Assembly: GCA_045540155.1 (NCBI GenBank) | Contig: JAZQGT010000050.1 | Coordinates: forward strand, 16,493 to 80,492 | Reading direction: 5' to 3' | Source: Faecousia sp. | GTDB taxonomy: Bacteria; Bacillota; Clostridia; Oscillospirales; Oscillospiraceae | Length of the DNA: 64,000 bases | Part shown: positions 44,945-61,935 of the stretch, in pieces | How the letters are laid out: the number at the start of each line of letters is the position of its first letter | Numbering within the stretch: the stretch's first letter is position 1 | Notes under the pieces: model-generated | The model's database searches: none | What the model saw: the letters and a program-made list of their open reading frames with translations, nothing else | What the model was told of the DNA's origin: nothing | Translations under genes and position numbers: made by a program

Positions 44945-45691
44945 ATGACGCTGGCGCAGTTTTTTGCGAAGAATCCTAAGGTTGCCGTGGCTTTTTCCGG
45001 CGGCGTGGACTCCGCCTATCTTCTGTACGCTGCAAAGGACTGCGGCGCGCAGGTGCAGGCATACTATGTAAAGACCCCCTTTCAGCCCCGGTTTGAATAT
45101 GACGATGCGGTGCGTATGGCAGGACAGTTGAACATTCCTATGACTGCGCTGGAGCTTGACGTGCTGGCAGACCCCGCCATTGCCGCCAACCCCCACAACC
45201 GGTGCTATTTCTGCAAGTACAAGATATTCACCGCCATTGTGCAGCAAGCGGAAAAAGACGGCTTTCCGCTGGTTTTGGACGGAACAAACGCCAGCGACGA
45301 TACCGCTGACCGACCTGGAATGGCGGCGCTGCAGCAGCTGCAAATTTGCTCCCCTCTCCGGGAATGCGGTCTGACCAAGGAAAAAATCCGCTCCCTTTCC
45401 CAAGAAGCGGGGCTTTTCACCCACGACAAGCCGGCTTACGCCTGCCTTGCCACCCGGATTCCCATGGGGACACCCATCACGGAAGAACGGCTTTCCAAAA
45501 CCGAGCGTTGCGAAAGCTTCTTAAGAGAACTGGGATTCACGGATTTCCGCATCCGGCTTATGGATGCTGCCGCTAAAATTCAAGTAACCCAATCCCAAAT
45601 CCCCCTGTTGCTGCAGCACCGGGAAGTGATTTTTGCAGAGCTGAAAAAAGATTACGATGCGGTCCTTTTGGACCTGGAGGTACGCCAATGA
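44945..45691 (+). CDS. larE: ATP-dependent sulfur transferase LarE
   Basis: AFSGGVDS PP-loop, RCYFCK, DGTNASD..RPG, ACLATRIP. Confidence 0.92.
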   Translation: MTLAQFFAKNPKVAVAFSGGVDSAYLLYAAKDCGAQVQAYYVKTPFQPRFEYDDAVRMAGQLNIPMTALELDVLADPAIAANPHNRCYFCKYKIFTAIVQQAEKDGFPLVLDGTNASDDTADRPGMAALQQLQICSPLRECGLTKEKIRSLSQEAGLFTHDKPAYACLATRIPMGTPITEERLSKTERCESFLRELGFTDFRIRLMDAAAKIQVTQSQIPLLLQHREVIFAELKKDYDAVLLDLEVRQ

Positions 45692-46443
45692 ACACGGATA
45701 TCAGAGCATTGCTGCAAGGGGTGCGCAGCGGCAGTGTCAGCGTGGATGATGCCCTTTTGACCCTGAAACAGCAGCCCTTTGCGGATTTGGGCTATGCCAA
45801 GGTGGATTTGCACCGACCGGTGCGGCAGGGCGCCAATGAAGTGATTTACGGCGCAGGCAAGACCCCGGAGCAAATTTGCGGCATTCTGGACGCCATGGCG
45901 CAGAACGGGCAGAAAAATGTGCTCATTACCCGTCTGGACCCAGAAAAGGCCGCTGCCATCGGGGAAAAGCTCCCCATTACCTATTATGAAAACGCCCGGG
46001 TCGCCGTTGCGGGAAAAATGGCCGAACCGGGCAACTGCGGCACCATTGTGGTAGCCACCGGCGGCACCAGCGACATTCCCGTAGCCGAAGAAGCGGCGCT
46101 TACCGCCGAATTTTTGGGAAATACCGTGGTGCGGCTGTATGACGTGGGCGTTGCCGGTCTGCATCGGCTATTGAACCACTCGGAAGAATTAATGGGCGCC
46201 AATGTGGTAATTGCCATTGCGGGTATGGAAGGCGCCCTTGCCAGCGTGGTAGGCGGACTTGTGGACTGTCCGGTGATTGCCGTGCCCACCAGTGTGGGAT
46301 ACGGCGCTGCATTTGAAGGACTGGCGGCGCTGCTGTCCATGCTCAATTCCTGCGCCAGCGGTGTGTCCGTGGTGAACATCGACAACGGCTTCGGCGCAGG
46401 CTACCTAGCAAGTATGATTAACCACATGGGAGGCGGCAAATGA
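45688..46443 (+). CDS. larB: Nickel-pincer cofactor biosynthesis protein LarB
   Basis: EVIYGAGKT, TGGTSDIPVAEEA, DVGVAGLHRL, AGMEGALASV, PTSVGYG, VNIDNGFGA. Confidence 0.95.
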   Translation: MNTDIRALLQGVRSGSVSVDDALLTLKQQPFADLGYAKVDLHRPVRQGANEVIYGAGKTPEQICGILDAMAQNGQKNVLITRLDPEKAAAIGEKLPITYYENARVAVAGKMAEPGNCGTIVVATGGTSDIPVAEEAALTAEFLGNTVVRLYDVGVAGLHRLLNHSEELMGANVVIAIAGMEGALASVVGGLVDCPVIAVPTSVGYGAAFEGLAALLSMLNSCASGVSVVNIDNGFGAGYLASMINHMGGGK

Positions 46444-47588
46444 AAACACTCTACCTAGATTGCAGTATGGGCGCAGCGGGAGATATGCTCACCGGGGCGC
46501 TTCTGGAGCTGTTCCCCAACCCGGCGGAAGTTCTGCAGGAGCTGAACGCCTTGGGTCTGCCCGGCGTTACCTTTATGGCGGAGAAAAGCACCAAATGCGG
46601 CATCACCGGCACCCAAATCCGGGTACTGATAGACGGTGACGAGGAGGGGCAGCCCCTCCGCCATCACCATAGCGGTATGGAAGACATTGCCCATATTGTC
46701 AGCCACCTGCAGCTCCCCCCCGCTGTCCGCAGTCATGTCCTGGAAATTTACACACTGATTGCCCAAGCCGAGAGCAAAGTACACGGCGAACCGGTTATGC
46801 AGATCCATTTCCACGAGGTGGGCGCTATGGATGCGGTGGCGGATATCACTGCCGTTTGCTATCTCCTTGACAAGCTGGGAGTGGGCGAAATTTACGCCTC
46901 CCCTGTCCATGTAGGCAGCGGACAGGTACGCTGCGCCCACGGCATTCTTCCCGTTCCCGCACCGGCAACGGCAGAAATTTTACAGGGTGTCCCCATTTAC
47001 GGCGGGGAAATCAAGGGCGAGCTGTGTACCCCCACCGGCGCGGCGCTGCTGAAACATTATGTAAACCAATTTGGCAGTATGCCTGTCATGGAGACCGCCT
47101 CCATCGGCTACGGCATGGGCAAGAAGGATTTTGACGCTCCCAACTGTGTCCGGGCAATGCTGGGCGCTGCCGCCGGGCAGACGGATGACGTATTGGAGCT
47201 ATCCTGCAATTTAGACGACATAACCGGCGAAGCCATCGGCTTTGCCACGGAGGAGCTGTTAAACAGCGGCGCATTGGATGTGTGGACCACCCCCATCGCC
47301 ATGAAGAAGAACCGCCCGGGAATTCTGCTGACAGTGCTGTGCCGCGTTAATGACAGAGAAAAATTCCTATCTCTTATTTTTCGCCACACCACCACCCTGG
47401 GCGTGCGGGAAAACCGCCTGCATCGCTATACCCTCACCCGCAGAACCGAAACTGTGCAGACCCCCTACGGCCCTGTGCGGCAGAAGATTGCCGCCGGCTA
47501 CGGTGTAGAACGGAAAAAATACGAATACGAGGATATTGCCCGGCTTGCCCGGGAAAACGATTTATCCTTGAAGAATATTACGGAATAA
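46440..47588 (+). CDS. larC: Nickel-pincer cofactor biosynthesis protein LarC (single ORF, C1+C2)
   Basis: GAAGDM, HHH, HFHEVGAMD, CAHGILPVPAPAT, ELCTPTGAA, CNLDD, MKKNRPG, TTTLGVR, EYED. Confidence 0.95.
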   Translation: MKTLYLDCSMGAAGDMLTGALLELFPNPAEVLQELNALGLPGVTFMAEKSTKCGITGTQIRVLIDGDEEGQPLRHHHSGMEDIAHIVSHLQLPPAVRSHVLEIYTLIAQAESKVHGEPVMQIHFHEVGAMDAVADITAVCYLLDKLGVGEIYASPVHVGSGQVRCAHGILPVPAPATAEILQGVPIYGGEIKGELCTPTGAALLKHYVNQFGSMPVMETASIGYGMGKKDFDAPNCVRAMLGAAAGQTDDVLELSCNLDDITGEAIGFATEELLNSGALDVWTTPIAMKKNRPGILLTVLCRVNDREKFLSLIFRHTTTLGVRENRLHRYTLTRRTETVQTPYGPVRQKIAAGYGVERKKYEYEDIARLARENDLSLKNITE

Positions 47589-47601
47589 GGAGTAACTGGG
47601 T

Positions 47602-49008
47602 ATGGATACTGCATTAAACTGGGATTTTACAATGGCCAATTACGGCGCTGTGTGGTCGTTTCTGGTGCAGCTGGGACTGCTTTTGCTGTTTCTGATGCTG
47701 GGCAACATTCTCCGCAGGACAATCCCCTTATTCCGCAAGTGCCTGATTCCCTCTGCCCTGCTGGGCGGCGCGCTGCTGCTGATTGTGGACATTATCTGCA
47801 AACACTGCGGCTTCATACTGGTGGATAACCGGATGATGCAGGTGATTACCTATCACTGTCTTGCCATCGGCTTCGGGGCAATGTCGCTGAAAACGGAAAA
47901 GAGCACCGTCAAATCCAGCCGTTCTCAAATACTGGAATTTGGCGCCTTGCAGGGCGGCACTTACATGCTGCAAGCCTTTGCAGGCCTTGCCATTACCATC
48001 ATTTTCTTCCTGCTGACCCGATACGGCAAAACGGTGATTTCCTATGTATGCGGTCTGATTCTGCCTTTGGGCTTCGGACAGGGCCCCGGCAACGCCCTGA
48101 CCTGGGATGTGAATTTCACCAATACCCCCGCCGCCCAGTTTGCCGGCAACGGCAGCTTCGGTCTGTCCCTGGCATCCATCGGCTTTGTGGTAGCCTCTGT
48201 TTTTGGCGTGCTGCACATTAACATCGGCAAGAAACGGGGACATATTCAAATCCGCGAGGCCCGTGATGAAACAGAGTTCATTGACCTGACCAACCCCTGC
48301 GGCAATGAGATTCCCGACAACGAATCCGTGGACAAATTCTCCATTCAGATGGGCTTTGTGGCGCTTGCCTACGCCATTGCCTTCGGCTTTATGTGTCTGC
48401 TGGGCGTACTGTCCAAGTTTACCAACAGCATCGCCTGGGGCTTTAACTTCCTGTGGGCCTCTTTGGCGGCTATGGCAATCAAAGCGGTGGTAAAGCTGCT
48501 GCAAAAACGAAATCTCATGCACAGAGCCTACATCAACAACTATCAGATGGACCGGATTTCCGGTTTCTCCTTCGATTTGATGATTGTGGCAGGTGTGGCT
48601 GCCATCGAAATCAACGACATCAAAAACTACATTCTTCCCATTGTTATTCTCAGCATTGTGGGTACAATCATTACTTACATCTACATTCGCCGGGTGGCAA
48701 ATCACTGCTTTAAGGACTTTGAACACGAGTTCTTCCTTATGAGCTTCGGCACCCTCACCGGCACCGCCTCCAACGGCATGATTCTGATGAAGGAAGTTGA
48801 CCCGGGTCTCCGCTCCCCTGTGTCCGGCCTGTACATTCTCTCCAACTTCCCTGCCATGGTGATGATCGCGCCGCTGCTGTTCCTGCTGAGCTTTGCAGGC
48901 AGTTCCTTCACAAATGCCTGTATTGCCTGCGGCATTTTCTTCCTGCTGTGGCTCTGCTATACCCTTTTCCTGTTCCGCAAAAAGCTGTTTCGTCGGAAGA
49001 ATGGGTAG
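47602..49008 (+). CDS. Sodium/glutamate symporter (GltS/ESS) family transporter
   Basis: IPSALLGG, GFGQGPG and FGTLTGTASNG re-entrant motifs; about 12 TM helices. Confidence 0.75.
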   Translation: MDTALNWDFTMANYGAVWSFLVQLGLLLLFLMLGNILRRTIPLFRKCLIPSALLGGALLLIVDIICKHCGFILVDNRMMQVITYHCLAIGFGAMSLKTEKSTVKSSRSQILEFGALQGGTYMLQAFAGLAITIIFFLLTRYGKTVISYVCGLILPLGFGQGPGNALTWDVNFTNTPAAQFAGNGSFGLSLASIGFVVASVFGVLHINIGKKRGHIQIREARDETEFIDLTNPCGNEIPDNESVDKFSIQMGFVALAYAIAFGFMCLLGVLSKFTNSIAWGFNFLWASLAAMAIKAVVKLLQKRNLMHRAYINNYQMDRISGFSFDLMIVAGVAAIEINDIKNYILPIVILSIVGTIITYIYIRRVANHCFKDFEHEFFLMSFGTLTGTASNGMILMKEVDPGLRSPVSGLYILSNFPAMVMIAPLLFLLSFAGSSFTNACIACGIFFLLWLCYTLFLFRKKLFRRKNG

Positions 49009-49133: not shown

Positions 49134-49784
49134 ATGATTATTACACAGAAGAAACCCATTGAAGAGGTTATGGCTCTGGTGGGCAACGCCAAGACCGTTG
49201 CCATCGTCGGCTGTAACAGCTGCGCTACCGCCTGTCAGACCGGCGGCGAGGCACAGATTAAGGAACTGTCCGCTATTTTGGAGCAGGCCGGCAAGAAGGT
49301 AGTGGCTACCACCATTGCTGACTACTGCTGCATGAATCTGGGCGTAAAGGCAAAGATGAAGCCCATCAATGCCGCCGCTCCCGACTGCGTTATCTGCATG
49401 TCCTGCGGTGACGGTGTGCAGTGTGTTGCCAAGAACGCAGCCAACATCCCCGTCTACCCCTCCAACAACACCATGTATCTGGGCGAAGCCGTCAAGTTCG
49501 GTGTCTGGGAAGAGTCCTGTCGCTTCTGCGGCGACTGTGTGCTGGGTCAGACCGGCGCTATTTGCCCCATCACCCAGTGCGCCAAGAGTCTGGTGAACGG
49601 CCCCTGCGGCGGTCAGAAGAACGGCAAATGCGAGGTCAATCCCGAAAATCCCTGCGCCTGGATTAAGATCTATGAGCGTCTGGAAGCCACCGGTCAGCTG
49701 GAGAAGCTGTCTGTACGCCGTAAGGACAAGGGTTACGGCGATTTCGCTTATCCCAGAACTATCAGCCTGAGGGGGAAGAAATAA
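49134..49784 (+). CDS. metV: MetV subunit of methylene-THF reductase (Cys-rich)
   Basis: GCNSCATACQTGGE, CGDGVQ, CRFCGDCVL, CPITQCAKSLVNGPCGG, CEV...CAW. Confidence 0.88.
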   Translation: MIITQKKPIEEVMALVGNAKTVAIVGCNSCATACQTGGEAQIKELSAILEQAGKKVVATTIADYCCMNLGVKAKMKPINAAAPDCVICMSCGDGVQCVAKNAANIPVYPSNNTMYLGEAVKFGVWEESCRFCGDCVLGQTGAICPITQCAKSLVNGPCGGQKNGKCEVNPENPCAWIKIYERLEATGQLEKLSVRRKDKGYGDFAYPRTISLRGKK

Positions 49785-50707
49785 TGAGCATTTTGAAAGA
49801 AGCACTGGAAAACGGTAAGTTTGGTATTACCGCTGAAATGGCCCCTCCTAAGGGATATGATTTCACCGAGCAGATGGAAGCTGCGGAGCTTTTGAAGGGC
49901 AAGGTACACGGCGTGAACGTGACCGACATGCAGTCTGCCAGCCTGAAAGCCACCGGCTTGGGTCTGTGCATCAAGCTGAAGCAGGCAGGCGTAGAGCCCA
50001 TTTTGCAGATGACCGGCCGCGACCGCAACCGTATGGCGCTGATGGGCGACGCGCTGGCAGCCGCTGCCTTTGGCATCGACACCATGCTGGCCCTCACCGG
50101 CGACCACCCCGTGGTAGGCGACTGCCGGGATAGCAAGCCTGTTTACGATCTGGACTCCGTGGGCATCCTGCAGATGCTCTCCGATATGGAAGCTACCGGC
50201 AACGACTGCGGCGGCAATGAGCTTGCCGGCGGCGCTCCCAAGTTCTATAAGGGCGCTTCCGTTACCCCCGTGTACGAGCCGCTGTTCCTGCAGATTAACA
50301 AGCTGCGTCAGAAAGTGGAAGCCGGCGCTATGTACATTCAGACCCAGGGCATTTTCGATCTGGATACTTATAAGCGCTTCCTGGAAGCCGTTGATAAGGC
50401 GGGCATCAAGACCCACATCATGGCAGGTATTATTCCTCTGAAGGCTGCCGGCATGGCAAAGTACATGAACGAAAACGTGCCCGGCATTGATGTGCCTCAG
50501 CACATGATTGACCGGCTTGCCGCCGCTGCTGCAGAAGGCAAGGAGAAGGGCGTTAAGGGTCTTCCCATGCAGCTGGGCATTGAGATGGCAGCCGAGATGA
50601 TTGCCGAGATCAAGGCGCAGGGCTTGGGCGACGGTGTGCATATCATGGCCATCGGCGCCGAGAAGAACGTGCCTACCATTTTGGAAAAGGCAGGCCTTTC
50701 CATCTAA
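49784..50707 (+). CDS. metF: Methylenetetrahydrofolate reductase
   Basis: TAEMAPPKG, NVTD, QMTGRDRNR, LTGDHP, KVEAGAMYIQTQ, GVHIM; TAATG coupling to metV. Confidence 0.92.
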   Translation: MSILKEALENGKFGITAEMAPPKGYDFTEQMEAAELLKGKVHGVNVTDMQSASLKATGLGLCIKLKQAGVEPILQMTGRDRNRMALMGDALAAAAFGIDTMLALTGDHPVVGDCRDSKPVYDLDSVGILQMLSDMEATGNDCGGNELAGGAPKFYKGASVTPVYEPLFLQINKLRQKVEAGAMYIQTQGIFDLDTYKRFLEAVDKAGIKTHIMAGIIPLKAAGMAKYMNENVPGIDVPQHMIDRLAAAAAEGKEKGVKGLPMQLGIEMAAEMIAEIKAQGLGDGVHIMAIGAEKNVPTILEKAGLSI

Positions 50708-50713: not shown

Positions 50714-50749
50714 AAAAAGAGCCGATTCTTGTGAATCGGCTCTTTTTTT
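50714..50749 (+). terminator. Intrinsic terminator after metF
   Basis: AAAAAGAGCCGATTC-TTGT-GAATCGGCTC-TTTTTTT. Confidence 0.8.
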
Positions 50750-50804
50750 CTCGAAAAATGTCGAAAAAATACCCCTTGTGTACGCTTGCTATCAATGCCA
50801 TAAT
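50749..50804 (+). promoter_or_regulatory. Tandem Spo0A boxes upstream of an extended -10 sigma-A-type promoter
   Basis: TCTCGAA 50749-50755 and perfect TGTCGAA 50759-50765 (10-bp period); TTGTGT 50776-50781, N17, TGnCATAAT ending at 50804. Confidence 0.55.
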
Positions 50805-50846
50805 TTGGTATTCTATAATCAGACTGATAACAAAGGGGGGAGGAAC

Positions 50847-51542
50847 ATGCACAAGCTGTTGATAGCAGACCCTTCCGAACCCTTTACCGACGGTGTAAAA
50901 GAGATTTTTGAAAACGAATTTGACCTGCAGGTATGCCACGACGGAGAATCCGCGCTGGAGGCGCTTATTTCCTTCCGCCCGGATGTGCTGGTGCTGAATC
51001 TGATGCTCCCCTATAAGGACGGTCTCACTGTTTTGCAGGAGAGCGCCCACCGTCCCCGGGTGATTCTTGCCATCTGCCCTTATATCAACGCCTACATTGA
51101 GCAGGTTTCCGCAGACTTAGGCGTGCAGTACATTATGATTATGCCCACAGTGAACGCCCTGCGTGTCCGGCTGACGGATATGATCGCCTCTTGTATCGCG
51201 GCAAAAGAGGATCTGTCCGCCCAGATAGCGGTGCACCTGCACACCCTGCGCTTCCCTACCCATCTGGACGGCTACCGGCAGCTGTGCGTGGGCATTCCTC
51301 TGTTTGCCCAAAATCCCGGTATGCGCCTGTCCAAGGAACTGTACCCGGCTATAGCAAAGCAGTTCGGCCTGCCCGATGCCCGGACAGTGGAGCATTCCAT
51401 CCGCAAGGCTATCCATGCTGCCTGGGCAAAAAGGGATCCGGTTGTCTGGACCAAATACTTCCCGCCGAAACCGGACGGCGCTATCCCCTGCCCCACCAAC
51501 AAAGAATTCATTTCCCACCTGGCGGAAATGCTGACCCAATAA
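50847..51542 (+). CDS. Spo0A paralogue with a degenerate (pseudo-)receiver domain
   Basis: Receiver-like KLLIAD...PDVLVLNLMLPYKDG; Spo0A_C motifs PTHLDGY, KELYPAIAK, VEHSIRKAI, PTNKEFI; RBS GGAGG. Confidence 0.85.
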   Translation: MHKLLIADPSEPFTDGVKEIFENEFDLQVCHDGESALEALISFRPDVLVLNLMLPYKDGLTVLQESAHRPRVILAICPYINAYIEQVSADLGVQYIMIMPTVNALRVRLTDMIASCIAAKEDLSAQIAVHLHTLRFPTHLDGYRQLCVGIPLFAQNPGMRLSKELYPAIAKQFGLPDARTVEHSIRKAIHAAWAKRDPVVWTKYFPPKPDGAIPCPTNKEFISHLAEMLTQ

Positions 51543-51548: not shown

Positions 51549-51572
51549 CCCCCGGCTCTTACGAGCCGGGGG
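51549..51572. terminator. Shared terminator between the Spo0A paralogue and the phage lysis genes
   Basis: CCCCCGGCTC-TTAC-GAGCCGGGGG. Confidence 0.7.
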
Positions 51573-51577: not shown

Positions 51578-51772
51578 TTACTGTCCGGCCGCGCCGGACC
51601 GCTCATGCTGCGTGCCAAAATAAAAGGACACCACCATAGATACAATGATCATTACGTTATCCGGCTGAATTGATCCTTTCAAAGCCAGCACCGAAAACAC
51701 CGTAACCACCGCAAAGGTTACAATGGTCTTCACCTTCAAAAGCTCCGCAACCTTTTGCGCAATTCCATTCAT
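51578..51772 (-). CDS. Small two-TM holin-like protein
   Basis: VKTIVT...VVSFYFG; last gene of the lysis cassette. Confidence 0.65.
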   Translation of the reverse strand: MNGIAQKVAELLKVKTIVTFAVVTVFSVLALKGSIQPDNVMIIVSMVVSFYFGTQHERSGAAGQ

Positions 51773-51777
51773 TTGCC

Positions 51778-52032
51778 CTACGCGCCCCTTTCCAAATCTG
51801 TCAGTCTGTGATTGATTACCTTAATCTGCTCTTCTACCACCGGCATCCGCCGGGCAAATCCGTTATGCTCCCGTACCTCCCGGGTCAGCTCGTCAATTTT
51901 GGTATCTGTAACCGCTTGGGAGACCTTCATGGCATTTTCATTCTTCTTTGCGGTTGCCATGCAGGTGACCACCACCCCTGCCAGGGAAAGGCATCCGGTA
52001 ATCAGCGCCGCCAATACGGCTTCGCCCATCAA
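51778..52032 (-). CDS. Phage membrane protein (N-terminal TM + coiled coil), holin-like
   Basis: Hydrophobic N-terminus; IDELTREVREHNGFARRMPVVEEQIKVINHRLTDLE. Confidence 0.65.
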   Translation of the reverse strand: MMGEAVLAALITGCLSLAGVVVTCMATAKKNENAMKVSQAVTDTKIDELTREVREHNGFARRMPVVEEQIKVINHRLTDLERGA

Positions 52033-52035
52033 TGA

Positions 52036-52869
52036 TCACCCCATTCCCAGCAGCCTTTTCCAGGTCTTGTTCTTGGCGGTAATCTCACCGTCAACGGTGC
52101 ACGCATTATCCAGCTGGAAGTGTGCAACAGCAGCTGTAAACTTACTGCCGGCGACACCGTCTGCTTTGCCGACCTCCGTGTAGCCCAAGGCATACAAACG
52201 CTTCTGCACCGCCTGCACAGCCCCGTGGGTACGGTTTCTATGCGCAGACAGGGTCACGGTCTTGGACAGTGTTTCCGGGCCGGCTATGCCGTCCACGGCG
52301 CCGCCGCAGGCCTGCTGCACATCCTTAATGAACTGCACAAGGGAATACCCTGCCGTCTTCTTTTCCAAGCCAAGGAACTCCGCTGCCGCCTTTGCGTAGG
52401 CGATGCCCAGGGCTTTCAGCTCTGCGTCGTCGTTCCAGTCCTGAATATCCTTGAGGTTGTCTACGAAAGCGCCCTCGTTCAGAACTGCCGGCATAGCGGT
52501 GTATTTCAGCACGTGCAGGTCGGTGCGGATCTTCACGCCCCGGCTGTTCTGCCCGATAGCCTTGACATACTTTTCGAAGATTCTGCCAAGTTCTACCCGC
52601 TTCTGATTATACACCAGCGCCTCGTAGCCATCACCGCCACCGGCATTGAAATGGTTGGATACAAACAGGTCAGCGCCCCAACTGTTAGCATCGTTGCAGA
52701 CCGCCGTTAAGCTGTCATTCGAGTAAACGCGGGTTTCGCACACGAAATTTTCCAGCAGATAGTCATTCATCTGCTGGGAAACCGCAATATTCAGCTTGCG
52801 TTCCGTCTCAAAGCCCACTGCACCGGGGTCCCGGTCAGAATGGCCGGGATTGATATAGATTTTCTTCAT
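52036..52869 (-). CDS. Endolysin: N-acetylmuramoyl-L-alanine amidase (Amidase_3) with peptidoglycan-binding domains
   Basis: INPGH, E, SNHFNA, VLNEGAFVDN; C-terminal VDGIAGPET, ADGVAGSKF and VDGEITA PG-binding repeats. Confidence 0.9.
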   Translation of the reverse strand: MKKIYINPGHSDRDPGAVGFETERKLNIAVSQQMNDYLLENFVCETRVYSNDSLTAVCNDANSWGADLFVSNHFNAGGGDGYEALVYNQKRVELGRIFEKYVKAIGQNSRGVKIRTDLHVLKYTAMPAVLNEGAFVDNLKDIQDWNDDAELKALGIAYAKAAAEFLGLEKKTAGYSLVQFIKDVQQACGGAVDGIAGPETLSKTVTLSAHRNRTHGAVQAVQKRLYALGYTEVGKADGVAGSKFTAAVAHFQLDNACTVDGEITAKNKTWKRLLGMG

Positions 52870-52890
52870 TTCGTCCATCTCCTCTTTTCC

Positions 52891-53919
52891 TTACCCCTGC
52901 ATATAGGCATTATTTCCTGGGGCAATTTTGAAATAACCGTAGGATGTAGCCTTGCTCTCGTTATAGTTTTCAAACACATCGCTGCTCTGTCCACCAAAAG
53001 CAGTGTAATCACCGCTGTACAGGGACAGGTCCGGAGCTACGCTCAGTGCCCCCACAGGAGAAGCTGCCACCACACTGCCACCCTTTATAACAATTTGTTC
53101 GGCAATAATACCCTTGCCGTTGGTGGGATGCCACCAAACAGTCTTGGAGATGAGGGTACCGCCCTCCACAACCAATGTCTTGACCTTCGTGGCCTGATAC
53201 CCCACATCAACCTGAACCGTACCGCTTTTTATGGTGATATTCTCCTTTCCGCAGCCAAGGCCGTCATTGCCGTTAATGCGTAAAGAACCGGTGCCACCGA
53301 TAACAATATCACAGCCGTTGGCGGACAAAGGCGCAGAACCCGTAAGGGTATTTTCCCCTACCAGCGTAACCTGTACCGGAACTGTGTTGCCGGGCAGGCC
53401 AATGCGACCGGGATAGCCGGTAATTTCCGTGACATTTGCATCACGTAAAATGACAACGGGAACGCCGCTATCGTTTAACATCACCTTTACGTTCCAGTTA
53501 TCGGGAAGCTGCCCGCCGCTGTACTGCGTCCCCCTGCCGTTCTCATCAACAACAATGCCCTTTACCGGCGTACTGGGGCTCACATCCAGGTAGAATTTCA
53601 CTCCACCCACCGAAACTGTCATAAAGAACGCCTCTACAATGCTCTTAATCTGCTCCGACAATTCCTCCAGTCGTTCCACCGGGGACACACCGCAGGTAAG
53701 CAAGGCCGTATTACAGTCTTTCAGGATTCCCGCATTGTAGCTTTCCATTTCAGAAATGCCGGCGGCATACCCTGCGGTTTCACCAACAGCATAACCCTTG
53801 CCGTAACCCGTGCTTTCACCTGCAGCATATCCCACATCATATCCGCCATCGGCGACCGTAACATCAAATTCCGGCTGGAAAGACCGGTCTGTTTTTGAGA
53901 ATTTTACGTCAAATCTCAT
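52891..53919 (-). CDS. Putative receptor-binding/accessory tail protein with GY repeats and a beta-helix-like C-terminus
   Basis: GYDVGYAAGESTGYGKGYAVGETAGYAAG repeat; ITIKSGTV/LVVEGGTL/IVIKGGSV repeats; ATGA overlap with the upstream gene. Confidence 0.55.
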   Translation of the reverse strand: MRFDVKFSKTDRSFQPEFDVTVADGGYDVGYAAGESTGYGKGYAVGETAGYAAGISEMESYNAGILKDCNTALLTCGVSPVERLEELSEQIKSIVEAFFMTVSVGGVKFYLDVSPSTPVKGIVVDENGRGTQYSGGQLPDNWNVKVMLNDSGVPVVILRDANVTEITGYPGRIGLPGNTVPVQVTLVGENTLTGSAPLSANGCDIVIGGTGSLRINGNDGLGCGKENITIKSGTVQVDVGYQATKVKTLVVEGGTLISKTVWWHPTNGKGIIAEQIVIKGGSVVAASPVGALSVAPDLSLYSGDYTAFGGQSSDVFENYNESKATSYGYFKIAPGNNAYMQG

Positions 53920-54218
53920 ACCAGACACCCGTCCTTCAGAATCCTGTCTACCGTGGCAACCATAATATTGGATGCCATTCTGGCATCCCCGCAGCCCACC
54001 CGCAGCTGAATTTCCACATTTCCCTTATCCGCATCAAACCGCAGCGTCTCTTCCTCCGTGAGCGTAACGCGGAGAGCGTTTTCCTCCACTGCGCAGTCAG
54101 CCAGTGTTTTCTCCAGAACAACCTGTTGCTGCTGGGCAAAGCACACATTCAGCGCGGTAATCTGTCTGCCGTCAAAGGGCAGCGTAAAGTTAAATGTCGG
54201 TGTCGTACCTCTGAACAT
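53916..54218 (-). CDS. Phage baseplate-associated small protein (BppU N-terminal-like)
   Basis: MFRGTTPTFNFTLP...LTEEETL...VEIQLRV...ILKDG; position after the fibre gene. Confidence 0.6.
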   Translation of the reverse strand: MFRGTTPTFNFTLPFDGRQITALNVCFAQQQQVVLEKTLADCAVEENALRVTLTEEETLRFDADKGNVEIQLRVGCGDARMASNIMVATVDRILKDGCLV

Positions 54219-54244
54219 TTATTGCTCCTCCTGTTCTAATTGAT

Positions 54245-56044
54245 CTACGATTCCCATTGCAAACCTCCCTGCTTCCATCTGCCGATAATATGGATATTAA
54301 CAGCAGTTGACCACTGCACCTCGCCAGATTCCAGGATATCGTCAGTGGGGTGCACAGTAAGGTGTAAATACGGGGAGTAATTGCTATTCGCTACATACAA
54401 ATCCTTAAACCGCATAGGGCATGGACATTGGTAGCAAGTTGCATTTATGAACGCATCGTCGTCAATAAATGCAAAGGGCAGGCTGATATCCACAGTTTTA
54501 TATACGCTGAAGGTAGGTCCTATCGCTACCGCAGTCCAGCACTCTGCCATGCCGCTTTCCCACTTGCGGTATATCCATCCACTGATTTTGCCCTGCTCCA
54601 CCGGAAAATCCACGGGATAATTGTTGATTTTCAGTGTGCCGTTGATATTGAAGTCATGTTCACCCCAATCAAATATAGGTGTCGCTCTTGCCGTATATTC
54701 TTCGGAAAGAACCGTTTCCAGACTATCTGCCGCTCTTGTCTGGAAGGTGTAGGCAGATTGGTAATTCAAGCCTGTCAATGCGCTCTCTGCCGTATAATGA
54801 CCCGTCCCGGGCACAGGCGTCATTGTGTGCCACTCTTCTTCTGTATCCAGCCAAGCCTCACCGCTCACCTTATACCGATATTGAACAGTCAATGTATTGG
54901 AGGCTTTGCCAAAGGAGCCTTTATAATAATTGCCGCTTGCACGGACAGTCATGTTGCCGTCTGTATCCGGCTGCGTATGCGCCAAATCACAGGTCAGCCG
55001 GATATACGGCACAAGCTTCCCCTGGGCAGCCTTGTCCACCGTGACACTGGCGCTATTGCCTCTGCTGTCCGTTGCGGTGAACACCAGCATGCCGCTGTCT
55101 ACGTTAGCAAACACACCGGAGGCGGCCGCAATGTGCCTGCCCCCGCAAACCGCTTTCTGGCTAACCAGCGAAGCGCCCTTGATTGCTTCTGCTCCAGTGG
55201 AAAAAGACGCGCTGCTGTGGTAACGCACCAAAACGCTGCTGTCTCCCGTCAATGCCACAGTTGCGCTGTTGCTGTCCTGTACCGCCGGAGAAAGCGCAGG
55301 GTCTGCATTGACCACAGAAAACACCGCCGGCAAATACTGGCCGTCCTGCAAACCGCCCACATTGCTCCAAAGATGGACAAATACCGTCATACTCTTCCTG
55401 TCGGGCATGGCATTTCTTAAAGTATTGCGTTCCGCCTCTGACAGGGAGAACGTGTAGGTTGTTGCAGTTTTTGAAAGCTCCCGATAGGGAACATAAACAA
55501 CCGTCTTCGTTTCGTCCAGAACTGCCGCCTGCAAACTGTCTGCCACCGTTCCGGCAGGGTTGCTGTAGGTAATGGTGGGATTCCCCTCATCGGTGAAATT
55601 GGACACCGTCAGCAGAGAGGCCCTTCTGGGAATCCCCGTAAGGGGCCAGGTTCCGGACAGCGTCATCGCCGGCGGGCCGTAGCTGGTCCAGTTCTGCACA
55701 TTGGGGACGGACACGCTATAGGGCATGTCCAGCGTTCCGTCGCTGTTGTGGGCAACCGTAACCTGCCCGGCGGCAATGGTCTGGGTTGTGTGATTAGCGG
55801 TAAGATTAAAATTAAAGTGATTGATGGCTATGCTCTGACCGCCCACAGAGATCCCCCAGCTGTAATCGTCAGAGGAAAACCGATTGTTGTCCGTGTTGCT
55901 GATGGTGAACAAATAGGAAACCAGCGACGAATTATCCGCAACACTGATACTTTCCTCGGTGAGCGTCAGGGTAATCACATAGCCGTTTGACCATGATTTC
56001 CACCCGTAATCACCTGTTGAAAACACTTTTGTCTGCAGCGCCAT
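54245..56044 (-). CDS. Siphophage minor tail / fibre protein (DUF859-like with a gp53-like C-terminus)
   Basis: VAHNSDGT, TGIPRRAS, ATDSRG, YTFQTRAAD; C-terminal GWIYRKWESGMAECW...IIGRWK. Confidence 0.7.
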   Translation of the reverse strand: MALQTKVFSTGDYGWKSWSNGYVITLTLTEESISVADNSSLVSYLFTISNTDNNRFSSDDYSWGISVGGQSIAINHFNFNLTANHTTQTIAAGQVTVAHNSDGTLDMPYSVSVPNVQNWTSYGPPAMTLSGTWPLTGIPRRASLLTVSNFTDEGNPTITYSNPAGTVADSLQAAVLDETKTVVYVPYRELSKTATTYTFSLSEAERNTLRNAMPDRKSMTVFVHLWSNVGGLQDGQYLPAVFSVVNADPALSPAVQDSNSATVALTGDSSVLVRYHSSASFSTGAEAIKGASLVSQKAVCGGRHIAAASGVFANVDSGMLVFTATDSRGNSASVTVDKAAQGKLVPYIRLTCDLAHTQPDTDGNMTVRASGNYYKGSFGKASNTLTVQYRYKVSGEAWLDTEEEWHTMTPVPGTGHYTAESALTGLNYQSAYTFQTRAADSLETVLSEEYTARATPIFDWGEHDFNINGTLKINNYPVDFPVEQGKISGWIYRKWESGMAECWTAVAIGPTFSVYKTVDISLPFAFIDDDAFINATCYQCPCPMRFKDLYVANSNYSPYLHLTVHPTDDILESGEVQWSTAVNIHIIGRWKQGGLQWES

Positions 56045-56045
56045 G

Positions 56046-57554
56046 TTAACCTCCTATCCAGAAACAGGCTGTTCTGTCGTTATCCAAGCTTTCAAACCGA
56101 CTTCTGCCGCCCACAATCAGATAGGTAGACGCGTGTAAATCCACTGCGTCCACCCCCTTGCTGTTGGCGGTGAGAACAGCGCCCCCATTTTTATAGACCG
56201 TCATGCCGTCCTCGGTAATCTGTGTTTTAATCTCTCTTCCCTGCTTCTGTACCGTCATGCCGGTTTCGTCAAAGGTATAGCCGGCAGCGGTACTGACCTT
56301 GGCCACGCCGTCATCCACAATGCTCTGCACCTGCACGGTAAGACCGGACGCGCTCTGCTCCACTACGGACATTCTGTCTGTAACCTCATGGAGTCCCGTT
56401 TGCTGACCTGCCACCTTTACCTGCAATCCGTCCACGGTAGTCTCCAGGGCAGTCATTTTTCCGTCCGCTTCCCGATTTTCAAGCTTCAGGCCTTCCACAC
56501 CCATCTGCAGCTCCAAAACCTTTCCGCTTAAGGTTTTGAACCCGGTATGATTGGCAGCGGTTGTGCTGTCCCGGCGGGCGCTGCCCGTGCATACCAATTC
56601 CGCCCGCTGCCCGGACTGGATCTTGGTCATTACATAGACTGGAAACGTTCTGCCGTTTTTGTCGGCAACCTGTAAAATATCTCCCGCCTCTATTTGGGCT
56701 GCAACCGATATAAAAACACTGCAAGGGGTGTAATCCACCCCTTGCAGTGTTTCGTAAATCACCTGCGCCGCTGCTTGCAAAGCCTCCTCGCTGTCAGAAG
56801 CCAGCAAACAGTTTCCGGTAATCACATATCCGTTGCTGCCGCTGCCATATATGGCGCCCACATCCGACTCCGTCAGCCGAATCTGTACCTTGTCGATGGG
56901 CGCCACCCGGTAGTCTTCAAACCGCAGGGCATAGATATCATACCCGACATCCTGCCCAACGACCACATCCTTGGGCGTGTACCACGCCAATTCCACTTCC
57001 CCGTCCGCAGTTGCCCTGCAAAAACGTCCGCATGCCTCGCCCACCCACTGCATCAGCTGCCTGCCTGTAATATCCCCGGCAGAAAACCGTTGCACCGGCC
57101 AGTCGCCGTTGGGAAGCACTTCATTGCGCAGTGTCAGATTGCAGGCAGCGCAGACCATCTTTGCAAAGTCATGCAAGGTATACGGCCACCCGTCCAGACT
57201 CTCCAGCCACTGGGACAGATTTCTGTCCAGCCAGCTCACCCGGTCATAGGCGGTAATTTTGCACATATTGGCGCTGGGACGGACAGGCTCCTCGGCGGTA
57301 AACAGCCCCACCTTGGTCCTGACGCCGTCCTCATCCACCTTGTAGAGGGTCAGCTCCATGCCGGCGGGGATGGAAAGTCTGCCCGCCGGCGTCAGAATGG
57401 TGGCCTCCAGCATATTGGCGCAGGCAGACCCCAGCGTCAGCTCCCTGCCGGCGTTCACCTGTTGGGTGATGGTCACGCTCTGCAGCGCATTGGCAGTACC
57501 TGCCCCGGAAAAAATTTCAGTTCCGTCGGGCAGGATCATTAAATTCTTCAGCAC
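56046..57554 (-). CDS. Phage tail (Tal/hub-like) protein
   Basis: Position after Dit; ELTLGSAC, ITAYDRV, C-terminal coiled coil. Confidence 0.65.
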   Translation of the reverse strand: MLKNLMILPDGTEIFSGAGTANALQSVTITQQVNAGRELTLGSACANMLEATILTPAGRLSIPAGMELTLYKVDEDGVRTKVGLFTAEEPVRPSANMCKITAYDRVSWLDRNLSQWLESLDGWPYTLHDFAKMVCAACNLTLRNEVLPNGDWPVQRFSAGDITGRQLMQWVGEACGRFCRATADGEVELAWYTPKDVVVGQDVGYDIYALRFEDYRVAPIDKVQIRLTESDVGAIYGSGSNGYVITGNCLLASDSEEALQAAAQVIYETLQGVDYTPCSVFISVAAQIEAGDILQVADKNGRTFPVYVMTKIQSGQRAELVCTGSARRDSTTAANHTGFKTLSGKVLELQMGVEGLKLENREADGKMTALETTVDGLQVKVAGQQTGLHEVTDRMSVVEQSASGLTVQVQSIVDDGVAKVSTAAGYTFDETGMTVQKQGREIKTQITEDGMTVYKNGGAVLTANSKGVDAVDLHASTYLIVGGRSRFESLDNDRTACFWIGG

Positions 57555-57565
57555 CGCGCCACCCC

Positions 57566-57940
57566 CTAACATTCAATAATGCTGAATTGGTAATTCCGGA
57601 GTTGTCCCCCGGGGGCGCTGTGCCACAGGATTCCGTGCTTGCTGCGATATGCGGTGGTCACCGTCATTTTGCTCAAATCCGTGTAATCGGGGTAGCTGAA
57701 TTGGAAATGGCTCTTCCCCGCAAACAGGCTCTCCATGTAGGAATACTCCTCCCCGGAGAGATACGCATAGGAAAAGCTCCACTTTCCAACATCCCGCCGC
57801 ACCACAATCCGATGCATGAATGCGCTCTCGTCTCTGCCGGAATCAGACGCGTCAATATCCTCCCGGGAGACCTCCACATCCGCATCCGGCGCCAGCATAG
57901 GCTTGCCGTCAATCAAAAATAACTCCGTCAGCTTTCTCAT
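57566..57940 (-). CDS. Distal tail (Dit-like) protein
   Basis: DIDASDSGRDESAFMHRIVVR, FSIIEC; follows the tape measure gene. Confidence 0.65.
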   Translation of the reverse strand: MRKLTELFLIDGKPMLAPDADVEVSREDIDASDSGRDESAFMHRIVVRRDVGKWSFSYAYLSGEEYSYMESLFAGKSHFQFSYPDYTDLSKMTVTTAYRSKHGILWHSAPGGQLRNYQFSIIEC

Positions 57941-60711
57941 GCCAATCCTCCGTTCACCACAGCCATTTTCCGCTGATACCGGGACATGGCATTGCCAATC
58001 ACATCGTCACCAATCTGAATTCCCAGCACCGCCTGCAAAATCTCCCGCTGCACCTCTACGGACGCAGTGAATCCTGCCATCATAGCCGACGTATTATCCT
58101 GCATCACCAACGCCACCGCCTCCTGAATGGTAGCTAGGGGCGCTTCAATGTTGGTACCGTGTCGCTGGTCGCCCACCATAGCCAAGAAAGGTTTGTTGGG
58201 GGGCAGGACGGCGCCCTTGGCCAGATACGGGATTTGGGGTACACTGATAGTATTCAGTCCGGAGAATGGTGTCAGTCCCAGAATATTAATATCCTTGATT
58301 TTTTGCAGTGCAGTATTGATTCCATTGAAAGGAATGCTGATTGCACCGTTTAATCCCTTGATAATACCATTTACAACGGTCTTAAAGACTGTTAATATGC
58401 CGTCTTTGATGTCAGTAAAAATATCACCGGCGATAGAGAAAACTGCCACAACACTTTCCCATGCCTCCGAGAACACTTCCTCGAAGAAAGATGCGACTTT
58501 ACCAAATATCTCTTTTACAGCCTCCCACGCCTGCGATGCCGCTTCGGTGAATCCGTTCCACAATCCAGAGAAGAACTCTGCAACAGGCTGGACAACATTT
58601 TCGTTGAACCAACCTGAAACGATACCCCAAACTACTTTGATGATCTCCCAACAGCCAGAGGCCAGGACACCGATGTTGTAAAATACATTCGAAAAAGTTT
58701 GACCGATGCTCACAAACAATTTGGAGAACCATTCAATAGCCGGAGAGAAGAATTCCACAATGGCATTCCAGCAAGCGGAAGCAGCTGTGGAAATACCCTC
58801 CCACGCATGCGAGGCAAATGTAGAAATATCTTTCCATGCACTGGCTGCCCAAGCAGAAATGTTGGCCCATAGTTCTGAGAAAAATGCACTTATCTCATCC
58901 CAGTATATGATGATCGCCGCTACAGCCGCAGCGACGGCCGCAATAATCGCCACTAACCAACCGACGCTAATTCCGAGAGCCGCAGCGATTGCAGCCAAGC
59001 CACCCGTAATTGCAGGAACAAGTGTCCCCGTTATCCACGCGCCAAGAGAGGCTATTGCTCCGCTTAACTTAGGAAACATCGCCGCTAACAATCCCACTTC
59101 CGGTGCCATAGCGCCAACGGCACCAATGTATTCCGCAATTTTCGCCGCAATAGAAAGTGCTCCAAATGCTCCACCAATACTTCCAATAAGGGTTATAAAA
59201 TTATTAATACCTTCTTGATTATTACTAACCCAATCAGAAATCCTAGTTAGCGCATCTGCAAAACCGTTGATGGTATCAATAATCACGCCACCTGTCCACT
59301 GAGCCAACGGTTTCAAGAACTCATCCCACAGCCATTGACCCATTGGCTTTAATCCTTCAATTGCTACATTGAGAAAATCCAGGGCCGCACTCAGCAAATC
59401 AAGAAATGCCGGTAAAACATCTTCAATCGTCCACTCAGCTATCGGCACTAGGATGTTGTACCAAGCCCATTCCAAACCCTCAAACAGTTTGGTGGTTAGC
59501 GGTGCGATTGCCTCTTTTAGTCGCCCGAACTCCTCCACTGCGGGTGCAAAATCGATTTGTTTCAGCGGTTCAATCAGTTCTTTGAACTTGTCCACAATAG
59601 CTTGTAGCTTTGGCGAAAAGGTATCCTCCACCTCTGTCGTGACCACGATGTTGGTGCCACTGGACACGCTGCCACCAGATGTTCCAGAAGGAGATTCACC
59701 ACTCCCCGTATTGGATTGTAGAATGTTCAGTTCGTCAAAGTTTGCCAGCGACTTCTTAGCCGCCTTTCCTGCCGCCGTGGTGGCCGCCTCCAGTTCCTCC
59801 TCCGCCTCTGCTCCCGCCGATGCTGAAGATGCTACCGAATCATTAGAATTTGCCAGAGTACTAGTCTGTACCGAAGCTTTTCCAAAGAGAGCCCCAACCA
59901 CAGATGCAACCGCATTAGCAAATTTCGTTACAGATGTAATTGCAGTATTTATGATTGGCAGAAGCGTCTGAATAATGGGATTGATTGCGTTGCCGACCGC
60001 CACCTTCAGGTCGTTGAATCGGAAGGACAACTGCTGAAGTTGCCCCGACAGAGTGCCTGCCACAGTTGCGGCATCACCAGTCTGATATTTGGTTTCCTTC
60101 AGAATCCCGCTGACTTCCGCCTGGATCTTCTGCTGCTGTGTCAGGTTGTTGGCCGTGGTACCGATGGATGCAGCATATTCATCCCACATCTTGGCAATAT
60201 TCTTTGTGACACCCGCATTGTCGACCAGAATGCTATTTTCGTTCTTCAGGCCCTCAGTTGCAGACTCAACAGCTTCACCCATGGTGTAGCTTGCCTGTCG
60301 TCCATAAGCCGAAGCATCTTTTAGGGCAGTCATTACCTGTTTAATTTGTCCGTCGTCATAGCCTCGGGATGCCAGATTCTTATAGGCGTTGATGGCATTT
60401 GTTGCGGGAATCAAGCCATCTTCCACATACTCTTCAATAAAGTCCTGAGCATCTGAAAAACTGCGTCCCTGACCCGCCAAGATGCTTTTCAAACCAGTCA
60501 GCGCATCGGACATTGTCCGTGCAGCCTGTGAGGATTCAGTGGCAAACTCGATGATTTTCTTAGTGGAAAAAGCTGCAGCCAGCATTACGGCAATGTTTTT
60601 TAGTGTGTTCCCAAGACCGCCTAACTGTCCAGAAATTGTTTTAATTCCTTTTTCAAATCCACTGTTATCCAACTCTGTGGAAATAACAACTTTTCCGTCA
60701 CTTGCCAACAT
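57937..60711 (-). CDS. Tail tape measure protein
   Basis: 924 aa, Ala-rich helical with 11-residue Trp/Phe periodic repeats; IPYLAKGAV...EAPL C-terminus. Confidence 0.9.
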   Translation of the reverse strand: MLASDGKVVISTELDNSGFEKGIKTISGQLGGLGNTLKNIAVMLAAAFSTKKIIEFATESSQAARTMSDALTGLKSILAGQGRSFSDAQDFIEEYVEDGLIPATNAINAYKNLASRGYDDGQIKQVMTALKDASAYGRQASYTMGEAVESATEGLKNENSILVDNAGVTKNIAKMWDEYAASIGTTANNLTQQQKIQAEVSGILKETKYQTGDAATVAGTLSGQLQQLSFRFNDLKVAVGNAINPIIQTLLPIINTAITSVTKFANAVASVVGALFGKASVQTSTLANSNDSVASSASAGAEAEEELEAATTAAGKAAKKSLANFDELNILQSNTGSGESPSGTSGGSVSSGTNIVVTTEVEDTFSPKLQAIVDKFKELIEPLKQIDFAPAVEEFGRLKEAIAPLTTKLFEGLEWAWYNILVPIAEWTIEDVLPAFLDLLSAALDFLNVAIEGLKPMGQWLWDEFLKPLAQWTGGVIIDTINGFADALTRISDWVSNNQEGINNFITLIGSIGGAFGALSIAAKIAEYIGAVGAMAPEVGLLAAMFPKLSGAIASLGAWITGTLVPAITGGLAAIAAALGISVGWLVAIIAAVAAAVAAIIIYWDEISAFFSELWANISAWAASAWKDISTFASHAWEGISTAASACWNAIVEFFSPAIEWFSKLFVSIGQTFSNVFYNIGVLASGCWEIIKVVWGIVSGWFNENVVQPVAEFFSGLWNGFTEAASQAWEAVKEIFGKVASFFEEVFSEAWESVVAVFSIAGDIFTDIKDGILTVFKTVVNGIIKGLNGAISIPFNGINTALQKIKDINILGLTPFSGLNTISVPQIPYLAKGAVLPPNKPFLAMVGDQRHGTNIEAPLATIQEAVALVMQDNTSAMMAGFTASVEVQREILQAVLGIQIGDDVIGNAMSRYQRKMAVVNGGLA

Positions 60712-60737
60712 CTCACCTCCTAAAAATAGGTATAGAA

Positions 60738-60764
60738 AAACCCCACCATTTTCACGGTAGGGTT
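60738..60764 (-). terminator. Probable terminator of the moron gene
   Basis: AAACCC.ACC...GGT.GGGTTT imperfect hairpin with a T-run on the minus strand. Confidence 0.5.
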
Positions 60765-60781
60765 TATGTATAAAATTGTAA

Positions 60782-61324
60782 TTATTTCTTACCAGGTTTC
60801 CATTGATAACCGCACTTCAAGCAGGTACAGATGATCTTTTTGGAACCAATTCCGCCGGCGATCAGGCCAACATCCAGCCCAACAGCAGCACCGATAGCAC
60901 CACGGGCAAAACCAAATCCTTTTTGATTTGCGGATATGCTTGTGGATAAACACTTGGGACAGTAGACTTGTCCGGATTTTTCCATATCTGCGATTTTAGC
61001 TTTGCGTTCATCCTTTTTCTTGCTGGGATACCAGATCGGTTCCGTATCAAATGTTCTAGAAGATGTAGATTTTGTTTCCTCGCCAAATAATTCATCAATT
61101 GTTTGCTTTGCCTCCAGCAATCCCATCCCTGTATCTTGCCGAAGTATCCGAATTGCTTCCAAGCGATTCGGCATATACTGCCCATATCGACGAATCATCT
61201 CAGGTCTCTCATCAGATGCACTGTTAGCAGCTGACACAGCGGCAACCGTTTCTTTCAGCCTCGTTCCACAACTAGAGCAGAAATTTGCATCTCCACAATC
61301 TTTTCCACAATTAGGGCAAAACAT
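60782..61324 (-). CDS. Moron: zinc-ribbon / L7-L12-CTD-like / glycine-rich TM protein
   Basis: FCPNCG...FCSSCG; EAIRILRQDTGMGLLEAKQTID; CPKC-GAIGAAVG..GLIAGGIG-CLKCG; low GC. Confidence 0.75.
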   Translation of the reverse strand: MFCPNCGKDCGDANFCSSCGTRLKETVAAVSAANSASDERPEMIRRYGQYMPNRLEAIRILRQDTGMGLLEAKQTIDELFGEETKSTSSRTFDTEPIWYPSKKKDERKAKIADMEKSGQVYCPKCLSTSISANQKGFGFARGAIGAAVGLDVGLIAGGIGSKKIICTCLKCGYQWKPGKK

Positions 61325-61347
61325 AGCGATCACACTCCTTTGCCCTT

Positions 61348-61376
61348 ATTATAAGCAAGCACAAATCAAAAAGCAA
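61348..61376 (-). promoter_or_regulatory. Sigma-A promoter of the moron
   Basis: TTGCTT-N17-TATAAT on the minus strand, followed by an AAGGAG RBS. Confidence 0.75.
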
Positions 61377-61380
61377 GGAA

Positions 61381-61935
61381 TTATTCTCCCAGCAGCTTCT
61401 TGAGCCGCTCCTGTTCTGCAATTTCTTCGGCAGAATATCGTTTTTTCAGATCTACCTTATCTTTGTTCTTGCGGTAGAATTCCTGTTCCCACTTTTCCAG
61501 CTTCTTGCCCTTACGGAGCTTCTCCCGGATGGAAACCAATGTGGAAAGCTGACCTTCGCCAATGGCGTTGAAATAGGACACGAAAGTCCACCAATGCAGA
61601 AAAGGTAAGGCTCGAATTTCTGTTCCTGCCACCTTGTTCACATCAGCAACGATTACCTGTGCATCCTGTTCCCAGTCCATCAGCTTTGGGGCAGGTTTGG
61701 CATCTTGGTCATCGCAGGAGATAAACTCCACCAAATATTCGATGGCTTCTTGAAGATGCTGTTGAGGAATTTCACCCTCATAAAACAATGCCAGCGCAAC
61801 CTTCCAGCGGACATACTCCGGCTGATCTGGATCATCCAGATACCGGAAGATTTCCAGAATGTCCCGGTAGTCTGCATTGATTGGGTATTCGACACCGCCG
61901 ATCTTGGCGGAAGTCGGCAGATTCCAAAGGTTCAT
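61381..61935 (-). CDS. Gp15-family phage protein (tail assembly)
   Basis: LPTS..I.G.EYPINADYR, DWEQDA, LHWWTF, LVSIR. Confidence 0.8.
   Translation of the reverse strand: MNLWNLPTSAKIGGVEYPINADYRDILEIFRYLDDPDQPEYVRWKVALALFYEGEIPQQHLQEAIEYLVEFISCDDQDAKPAPKLMDWEQDAQVIVADVNKVAGTEIRALPFLHWWTFVSYFNAIGEGQLSTLVSIREKLRKGKKLEKWEQEFYRKNKDKVDLKKRYSAEEIAEQERLKKLLGE

Follow-up and report, generated by a model that had tools for sequence, protein, structure and literature searches.

To our knowledge, Spo0A is the one regulator common to every endospore-former, and its control is usually described as control by phosphorylation. In other regulators, such as ChxR, HP1043 and GlnR, a receiver fold without the phosphorylation site is joined to a DNA-binding output; these are the aspartate-less receivers (ALRs), or pseudo-receivers. 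Here we describe a Spo0A paralogue of this kind, gene P0001, from a 64,000-nucleotide stretch of Faecousia sp. DNA (contig JAZQGT010000050.1 of assembly GCA_045540155.1; the whole stretch is referred to as the window). The paralogue has lost the phospho-acceptor aspartate of its receiver and carries tandem 0A boxes, i.e., putative Spo0A-binding sites, in its own promoter. The sequence-only reading that first pointed it out held up in almost all particulars, and its interpretation is supported to the extent that sequence allows.

The closest published parallel to the wiring that we propose for the paralogue is CmrR/CmrT of Clostridioides difficile (PMC12548384; model in PMC12632262), where a canonical regulator is proposed to increase the amount of a paralogous pseudo-receiver protein that is constitutively active (PMC12632262). 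CmrRST is a phase-variable system of the OmpR family encoded by a single operon, whereas the Faecousia pair belongs to the Spo0A family, is unlinked and is joined by the inferred 0A-box link alone. Extra Spo0A homologues have also been described: Clostridium thermocellum has one (Clo1313_0637 / Cthe_3087) besides its sporulation-essential copy (PMC4890492). At 49% identity to Bacillus subtilis Spo0A, Clo1313_0637 is much nearer to canonical Spo0A than the Faecousia paralogue, whose family turned up only within Faecousia when 150 genomes were sampled across the bacterial family. Gut phages carry truncated spo0A homologues without a receiver (Schwartz et al. 2023, PMC10294663), in which Spo0A_C is uncoupled from phosphorelay input, as it would be in the paralogue, which also lies beside phage genes; unlike the phage homologues, however, the paralogue is host-encoded and has a full receiver under selection. 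Of the 391 Response_reg~Spo0A_C proteins in a 2015 census, 7 were ALRs (Maule et al. 2015, PMC4395418, S6 Table), and our literature search returned no paper on a Spo0A-type pseudo-receiver, on how conserved it is or on its promoter. While the commonest substitution of the aspartate in ALRs is glutamate, the Faecousia paralogue has asparagine and, unlike ALRs generally, its clade shows a conserved regulatory footprint that would tie it to the parental regulator.

The paralogue shares its architecture of receiver plus Spo0A_C, and its folds, with canonical Spo0A (TIGR02875; B. subtilis, C. difficile; structures 1QMP, 1LQ1 and 1FC3), but is shorter (231 amino acids against 258) with a shorter linker. 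The coding sequence and its parts are:

50847 to 51542, forward strand: coding sequence of the Spo0A paralogue P0001, ATG at 50847, stop codon included, 231 amino acids.
50847 to 51200, forward strand: pseudo-receiver domain without the aspartate, amino acids 1-118, assigned from the AlphaFold2 fold, the 1QMP match and residue conservation.
51234 to 51530, forward strand: Spo0A_C DNA-binding domain, amino acids 130-228, assigned from Pfam and from alignment to the Spo0A-DNA complex chain 1LQ1.
51378 to 51428, forward strand: recognition helix, amino acids 178-194, reading RTVEHSIRKAIHAAW, assigned from the 1LQ1 alignment and the AlphaFold2 helices.

The sequence-only reading of the window had described this protein as a full-length receiver followed by Spo0A_C, and both halves were recovered. 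An AlphaFold2 model made with 51 orthologues as input (mean predicted local distance difference test score, pLDDT, 89.8) has a complete (beta-alpha)5 receiver, the elements of which run from E3-7 through H102-116, and then six helices. Its best match among solved structures by Foldseek was the Spo0A receiver 1QMP (TM-score 0.78 on the target), and a search of the ESM Atlas gave nothing beyond clusters named 'Spo0A_C hypothetical protein'. In profile searches, Spo0A_C (PF08769) scored 68.9 bits over amino acids 130-228 and profile positions 4-103 of 104, against a Pfam gathering threshold of 25 bits. Response_reg (PF00072) matched amino acids 5-68 alone with 27.8 bits, which is below its gathering threshold of 30.2 bits, and the Spo0A equivalog model TIGR02875 gave 92.3 bits, far under its cut-off of 200. 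The paralogue does not belong to the Spo0A equivalog family, but it does belong to the Spo0A_C domain family and to the atypical response regulators that lack the aspartate.

Receiver residues were compared with the canonical Spo0A of the same genome, and orthologue counts were taken from the 120 best-matching proteins out of 550 database homologues; these 120 share 64-80% identity, and almost all have a length of about 231 amino acids. The phospho-acceptor aspartate is replaced by Asn51 (codon 50997-50999; VLVLNLML in the paralogue, ILVLDMML in canonical Spo0A) and the active-site lysine by Met99 (codon 51141-51143; IMIMP against LMLKP). Both replacements had been called from the sequence and both are shared by the orthologues, with asparagine kept in 114 of the 120, and methionine in 102 and lysine in none at the second position; the loss of the two residues extends to DNA-derived orthologues down to about 39% identity. 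This fits the definition of a pseudo-receiver as a recognisable receiver without the phosphorylation-site aspartate (PMC12632262). The receiver keeps its fold and, given the changes from aspartate to asparagine and from lysine to methionine, is predicted to be no longer phosphorylatable on the canonical aspartate. Two other changes named in the sequence-only reading count for less. The second acidic residue is missing from the paralogue as claimed, but this column is A, S, G or N in canonical Spo0A throughout the Oscillospiraceae, so its loss is not diagnostic. Likewise, the switch threonine is a cysteine in the window, but the position holds threonine or serine in 83 of the 120 orthologues, which makes this point weaker than it was stated. 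Canonical Spo0A from about 30 Oscillospiraceae genomes (L008-L036, P0121) reads AD-[A/S/G/N] at the acidic pair with a conserved E-E or E-D two residues on, and a strict five-residue definition would class even these proteins as pseudo-receivers.

The assembly is a metagenome-assembled genome (MAG) of 1.40 Mb in 56 contigs, 81% complete, and it holds exactly two Spo0A_C genes, the paralogue and, on contig C23, the canonical spo0A (284.6 bits on TIGR02875). The paralogue is 31% identical to this protein over its full length, about 25-30% in the receivers. Canonical Spo0A was also present in four of five other paralogue-bearing genomes that were checked, the fifth being 74% complete.

The second part of the finding is the promoter, which was read by eye and then supported by a phylogenetic footprint. 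Its elements are:

50749 to 50755, forward strand: distal 0A-like box TCTCGAA, one mismatch to TGTCGAA, with the TCGAA core invariant in 13 orthologous promoters.
50759 to 50765, forward strand: proximal perfect 0A box TGTCGAA, core invariant in the 13 orthologous promoters.
50786 to 50791, forward strand: putative -35 element TTGCTA, TTG invariant, at a fixed distance of 20 bp from the proximal box.
50806 to 50814, forward strand: putative extended -10 element TGgTATTCT, T.TG.TAT..T columns invariant, with TG at 50806-50807 and the -10 TATTCT at 50809-50814.

The two boxes stand head to tail, 10 bp apart, with centres roughly 60 and 70 bp 5' of the inferred start site, and the spacer between -35 and -10 is 17 bp. 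A tandem pair with at most one mismatch in total occurs at one site in the 1.40-Mb assembly, i.e., this promoter, and allowing two mismatches adds four further tandem sites, one of them 5' of canonical spo0A. The lone heptamer TGTCGAA is not above chance in the window (3 copies, 5.6 expected). Across the 13 aligned orthologous promoters, TCGAAAA, TCGAA, the TTG of the -35 and the T.TG.TAT..T of the extended -10 are invariant at fixed spacing while the spacers between them are otherwise scrambled. In a wider set of 36 non-redundant promoters from the family, counted by hand from the sequences, 23 have a perfect TGTCGAA about 70 to 110 bp upstream of the start codon and most of the remainder have one-mismatch boxes in the same region. 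The boxes and the -35/extended -10 promoter were as the sequence-only reading had placed them, and their conservation holds across orthologues; a generic promoter scan of the window did not call the TTGCTA-N17-TATTCT promoter. By sequence, these conserved putative binding sites in the promoter region make the gene a predicted member of the Spo0A regulon. Over both strands of the whole genome there are 75 copies of TGTCGAA where base composition would predict about 161, and only about 13 of the 75 are intergenic.

Autoregulation of spo0A is well known, and the canonical spo0A of this genome, like the paralogue, has 0A boxes in its own promoter: a tandem GGTCGAA-tta-CGTCGAA about 210 bp 5' of the start, as expected from that autoregulation. 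Degenerate boxes (TGTCGGT, TGTCGAT and TGTCGCA) also lie around a TTGCAA-N17-TAAATT promoter on contig C23 (L003:1270-1400).

In the DNA-binding half, the recognition helix reads VEHSIRKAI in the paralogue and VERAIRHAI in canonical Spo0A, so that VEHSIR in place of VERAIR, first noticed against the B. subtilis protein, was also seen against the genome's own Spo0A. The three changes (arginine to histidine, alanine to serine, histidine to lysine) are conserved; the helix-turn-helix is largely retained, with V-E-x-x-I-R-x-A-I..AW recognisable in the alignment to 1LQ1. The canonical C-domain signatures SRVERAIRHAIEVAW and FFGYTVSNTKGKPTNSEF are invariant in 30 canonical sequences; at these places the paralogue reads RTVEHSIRKAIHAAW and KYFPPKPDGAIPCPTNKEF and departs from the Spo0A equivalog signature. 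The canonical stretch FFGYTVSNTKGKP, which we take to be the sigma-A-activating region of Spo0A, is likewise invariant in all 30 canonical sequences and is replaced by YFPPxxDGxIPCP in every paralogue. The changed helix suggests altered DNA specificity and the replaced stretch altered contact with RNA polymerase, which together suggests a target set or a polymerase contact other than that of Spo0A. We found nothing usable in the literature on which bases the Spo0A recognition helix contacts.

The boxes are constant across clades with differing recognition helices, and the canonical helix is invariant, which makes canonical Spo0A the most economical binder; we infer that it is the candidate binder of the boxes. 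On balance, then, the paralogue is probably an atypical response regulator that is active without phosphorylation and the level of which is set by Spo0A~P. Spo0A~P would bind the two head-to-tail 0A boxes 5' of the gene and activate the sigma-A-type promoter TTGCTA-N17-TGgTATTCT. The paralogue would then accumulate and regulate through its Spo0A_C helix-turn-helix, by level rather than by phosphorylation, and its altered helix (VEHSIRK for VERAIRH) and surface (YFPPxxDGxIPCP for FFGYTVSNTKGKP) would lead it to different targets or to a different contact with RNA polymerase. A sporulation-linked role is plausible since the genome retains sporulation genes (SpoIVA, 350 bits; SpoIIE-like; SpoIIGA-like). 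More tentatively, in part of this very large, uncultured gut genus the arrangement might form a second, transcriptionally latched tier of the sporulation decision, in which Spo0A~P switches on the aspartate-less copy, itself deaf to kinases and phosphatases, and the Spo0A regulon is split into phosphorylation-dependent and phosphorylation-independent parts. If true, a conserved, non-phosphorylatable Spo0A copy would add a layer to sporulation initiation in the abundant gut Oscillospiraceae. Two separate genes of the SpoIIGA-like family (the pro-sigma-E protease family) were found, at C44:32439-33188 and C3:380-1126, both far under the equivalog cut-off.

Several points weigh against this proposal. 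Spo0A sites at spoIIG overlap the -35 element, whereas the boxes here lie about 20 bp 5' of it. The paralogue, with most of its helix-turn-helix retained, could itself be the protein that binds the boxes. No recognisable Spo0A regulon emerged from the 12 further perfect 0A boxes that lie in intergenic DNA; the genes 3' of them include polysaccharide deacetylase, pheT, malQ, scpA, a G5/3D protein and others. Within the genus, the family gave a match at E <= 1e-40 in 32 of 120 sampled species (36-75% identity), so it is not essential to sporulation in Faecousia. Lastly, the constitutive activity of the paralogue is assumed: as long as it is unphosphorylated, the receiver of B. subtilis Spo0A inhibits the DNA-binding domain (PMC10294663), and the paralogue could therefore be permanently off without another input.

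The alternative that fares best is that the paralogue is a negative-feedback antagonist, induced by Spo0A~P and then blocking 0A boxes or forming unproductive mixed dimers through its receiver. The replacement of the presumed sigma-A-activating surface in every paralogue keeps this idea alive, as does a mostly preserved helix-turn-helix, and the intact receiver fold offers a possible dimer surface. We nevertheless think it unlikely, since the conserved changes in the recognition helix favour a shifted over an identical specificity and heterodimerisation is not obvious between receivers of such low identity. The present evidence is neutral between activation and repression.

Pure autoregulation, in which the boxes are the operator of the paralogue itself and canonical Spo0A plays no part, is less likely again. 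Positive autoregulation is common among response regulators (PMC12632262), the paralogue has kept a helix-turn-helix of the Spo0A type, and the boxes accompany the gene in every genomic context seen. However, the boxes hold the TGTCGAA consensus while the helix of the paralogue varies by clade (EHSI, ERSI, ERAI, EKNM), and the same tandem arrangement is found at the canonical spo0A promoter.

The position of the gene raises a further explanation for the paralogue, namely that it is phage cargo, a terminal moron of the adjacent prophage-like element that manipulates host sporulation. From 51578 to 64000, on the reverse strand, the window encodes two small holin-like proteins, an Amidase_3 endolysin, tail proteins and a tape measure protein. 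The holin gene that ends at 51578 converges on the paralogue, leaving 36 bp between this lysis and tail module and the 3' end of the paralogue, and at least six Faecousia loci (L039, L037/L038, L041, L045, L048, L079) show this junction as well. Moreover, the paralogue matches phrog_37855 (83 bits), gut phages carry spo0A homologues of their own (PMC10294663), and there are two related loci in IMG/VR, on contigs that also carry host metV/metF.

Other contexts speak for the host. Downstream of the orthologues in L040 and L044 lies a chromate transporter, without any phage genes, and distant orthologues (57%, 56% and 43% identity; L080, L081 and L083) lie among ordinary metabolic genes for sugar metabolism, peptidases and serine hydroxymethyltransferase (SHMT). 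Paralogues that keep the aspartate have the same promoter design, and none of those examined has phage neighbours. The G+C content at third codon positions (GC3) of the paralogue is 0.68, within the 0.64-0.71 of the upstream host genes, and the published phage homologues lack a receiver (PMC10294663) where the paralogue has a complete one. Searches of INPHARED phage records gave distant matches alone, at 34% identity or less. An origin in phage was rejected on account of the orthologues in phage-free host contexts, which together with the host-like GC3 mark the gene as one of the host, and we regard the cargo explanation as very improbable. We conclude that it is a chromosomal gene, directly downstream of which a family of phage-like elements is located, or inserts, in one subclade. 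Host-type and phage-type downstream sequences, compared across loci, diverge right after the stop codon, and the paralogue end of the module shows no att site, integrase or tRNA. The junction may be a place of repeated insertion, or the element may be inherited vertically. The paralogues at the recurrent junction are only 50-80% identical.

When 150 genomes were sampled across the bacterial family, with one or two from each genus, the matches outside Faecousia were all at the level of canonical Spo0A (38% identity or less); the related loci bear the names Faecousia sp. and Oscillospiraceae. A mobile gene, which the family-level search had suggested, was ruled out by the genus-level search and the Faecousia MAG loci; the paralogue family is genus-restricted and chromosomal.

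The alignment separates three groups: canonical Spo0A with an essentially invariant C-domain; paralogues that retain the aspartate, threonine and lysine and have the helix VERSIRSAI; and paralogues without the aspartate and lysine, mostly with the helix VEHSIRKAI. In a quick maximum-likelihood run of IQ-TREE, with support from the Shimodaira-Hasegawa-like approximate likelihood ratio test (SH-aLRT) only, canonical Spo0A forms one clade on a long branch (support 100). The aspartate-less proteins form a main clade of 13 (SH-aLRT 96) and another clade with 4 members (support 100). Each of the two is nested among aspartate-keeping paralogues, which indicates that the aspartate was lost one to three times within the paralogue family. 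Synonymous divergence (dS) was saturated for most pairs; in the three least-saturated, informative pairs the ratio of nonsynonymous to synonymous substitution rates (dN/dS) was 0.11, 0.11 and 0.13 and was similar in the receiver and the DNA-binding half, so that both halves are under purifying selection. How a pseudo-receiver is turned on or off ranks among the open questions of the field (PMC12632262), and this family offers a natural series from aspartate-keeping to aspartate-less members that is suited to its study; if our proposal is true, it would capture a response regulator in the course of becoming a pseudo-receiver.

That the gene is a decaying duplicate or an assembly error, with the change from aspartate to asparagine as a strain-specific lesion, is scarcely credible: a Response_reg score just under the gathering threshold and the patchy distribution in the genus would fit it, but it is refuted by an asparagine and a missing lysine conserved in more than 100 independent metagenomic orthologues and by a dN/dS of about 0.1, rather than the value near 1 named beforehand as a sign of decay, in both domains of a gene with no stops or frameshifts and a confidently predicted fold.

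Further Spo0A-like genes, some of them tandem or duplicated copies, were seen in other genomes of the genus and of the bacterial family. One of them (G247) has a third Spo0A-like copy at C30:61247-61954 (122 bits), another (G047) has four Spo0A-like matches, and two (G093 and G121) have duplicated copies of the canonical type; the Oscillospiraceae seem to have Spo0A gene families more often than is usually assumed. Counts of Spo0A_C matches in metagenomes over-count true spo0A genes.

The remaining features around the gene are:

50714 to 50747, forward strand: hairpin and T-run, terminator of metF, 5' of the paralogue.
50835 to 50843, forward strand: ribosome binding site GGGGGGAGG, with GGAGG at 50839-50843 and the ATG 3 nt downstream.
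51549 to 51572, no strand assigned: GC-rich hairpin terminator common to the paralogue and the convergent phage-like holin gene.

Upstream of the paralogue lies metF (49784-50704), which has a Pfam match to methylenetetrahydrofolate reductase (MTHFR), and its terminator makes the paralogue a separate transcription unit. Across loci the 5' neighbour is mostly metV-metF, but larC directly in L079 and lgt in L044. Further upstream in the window, at 44945-49008, is a cluster resembling larE, larB and larC (a PP-loop ATPase, an AIR carboxylase-like protein and a nickel insertion protein), followed by a 468-amino-acid membrane protein without a Pfam match that sits just 5' of metV-metF.

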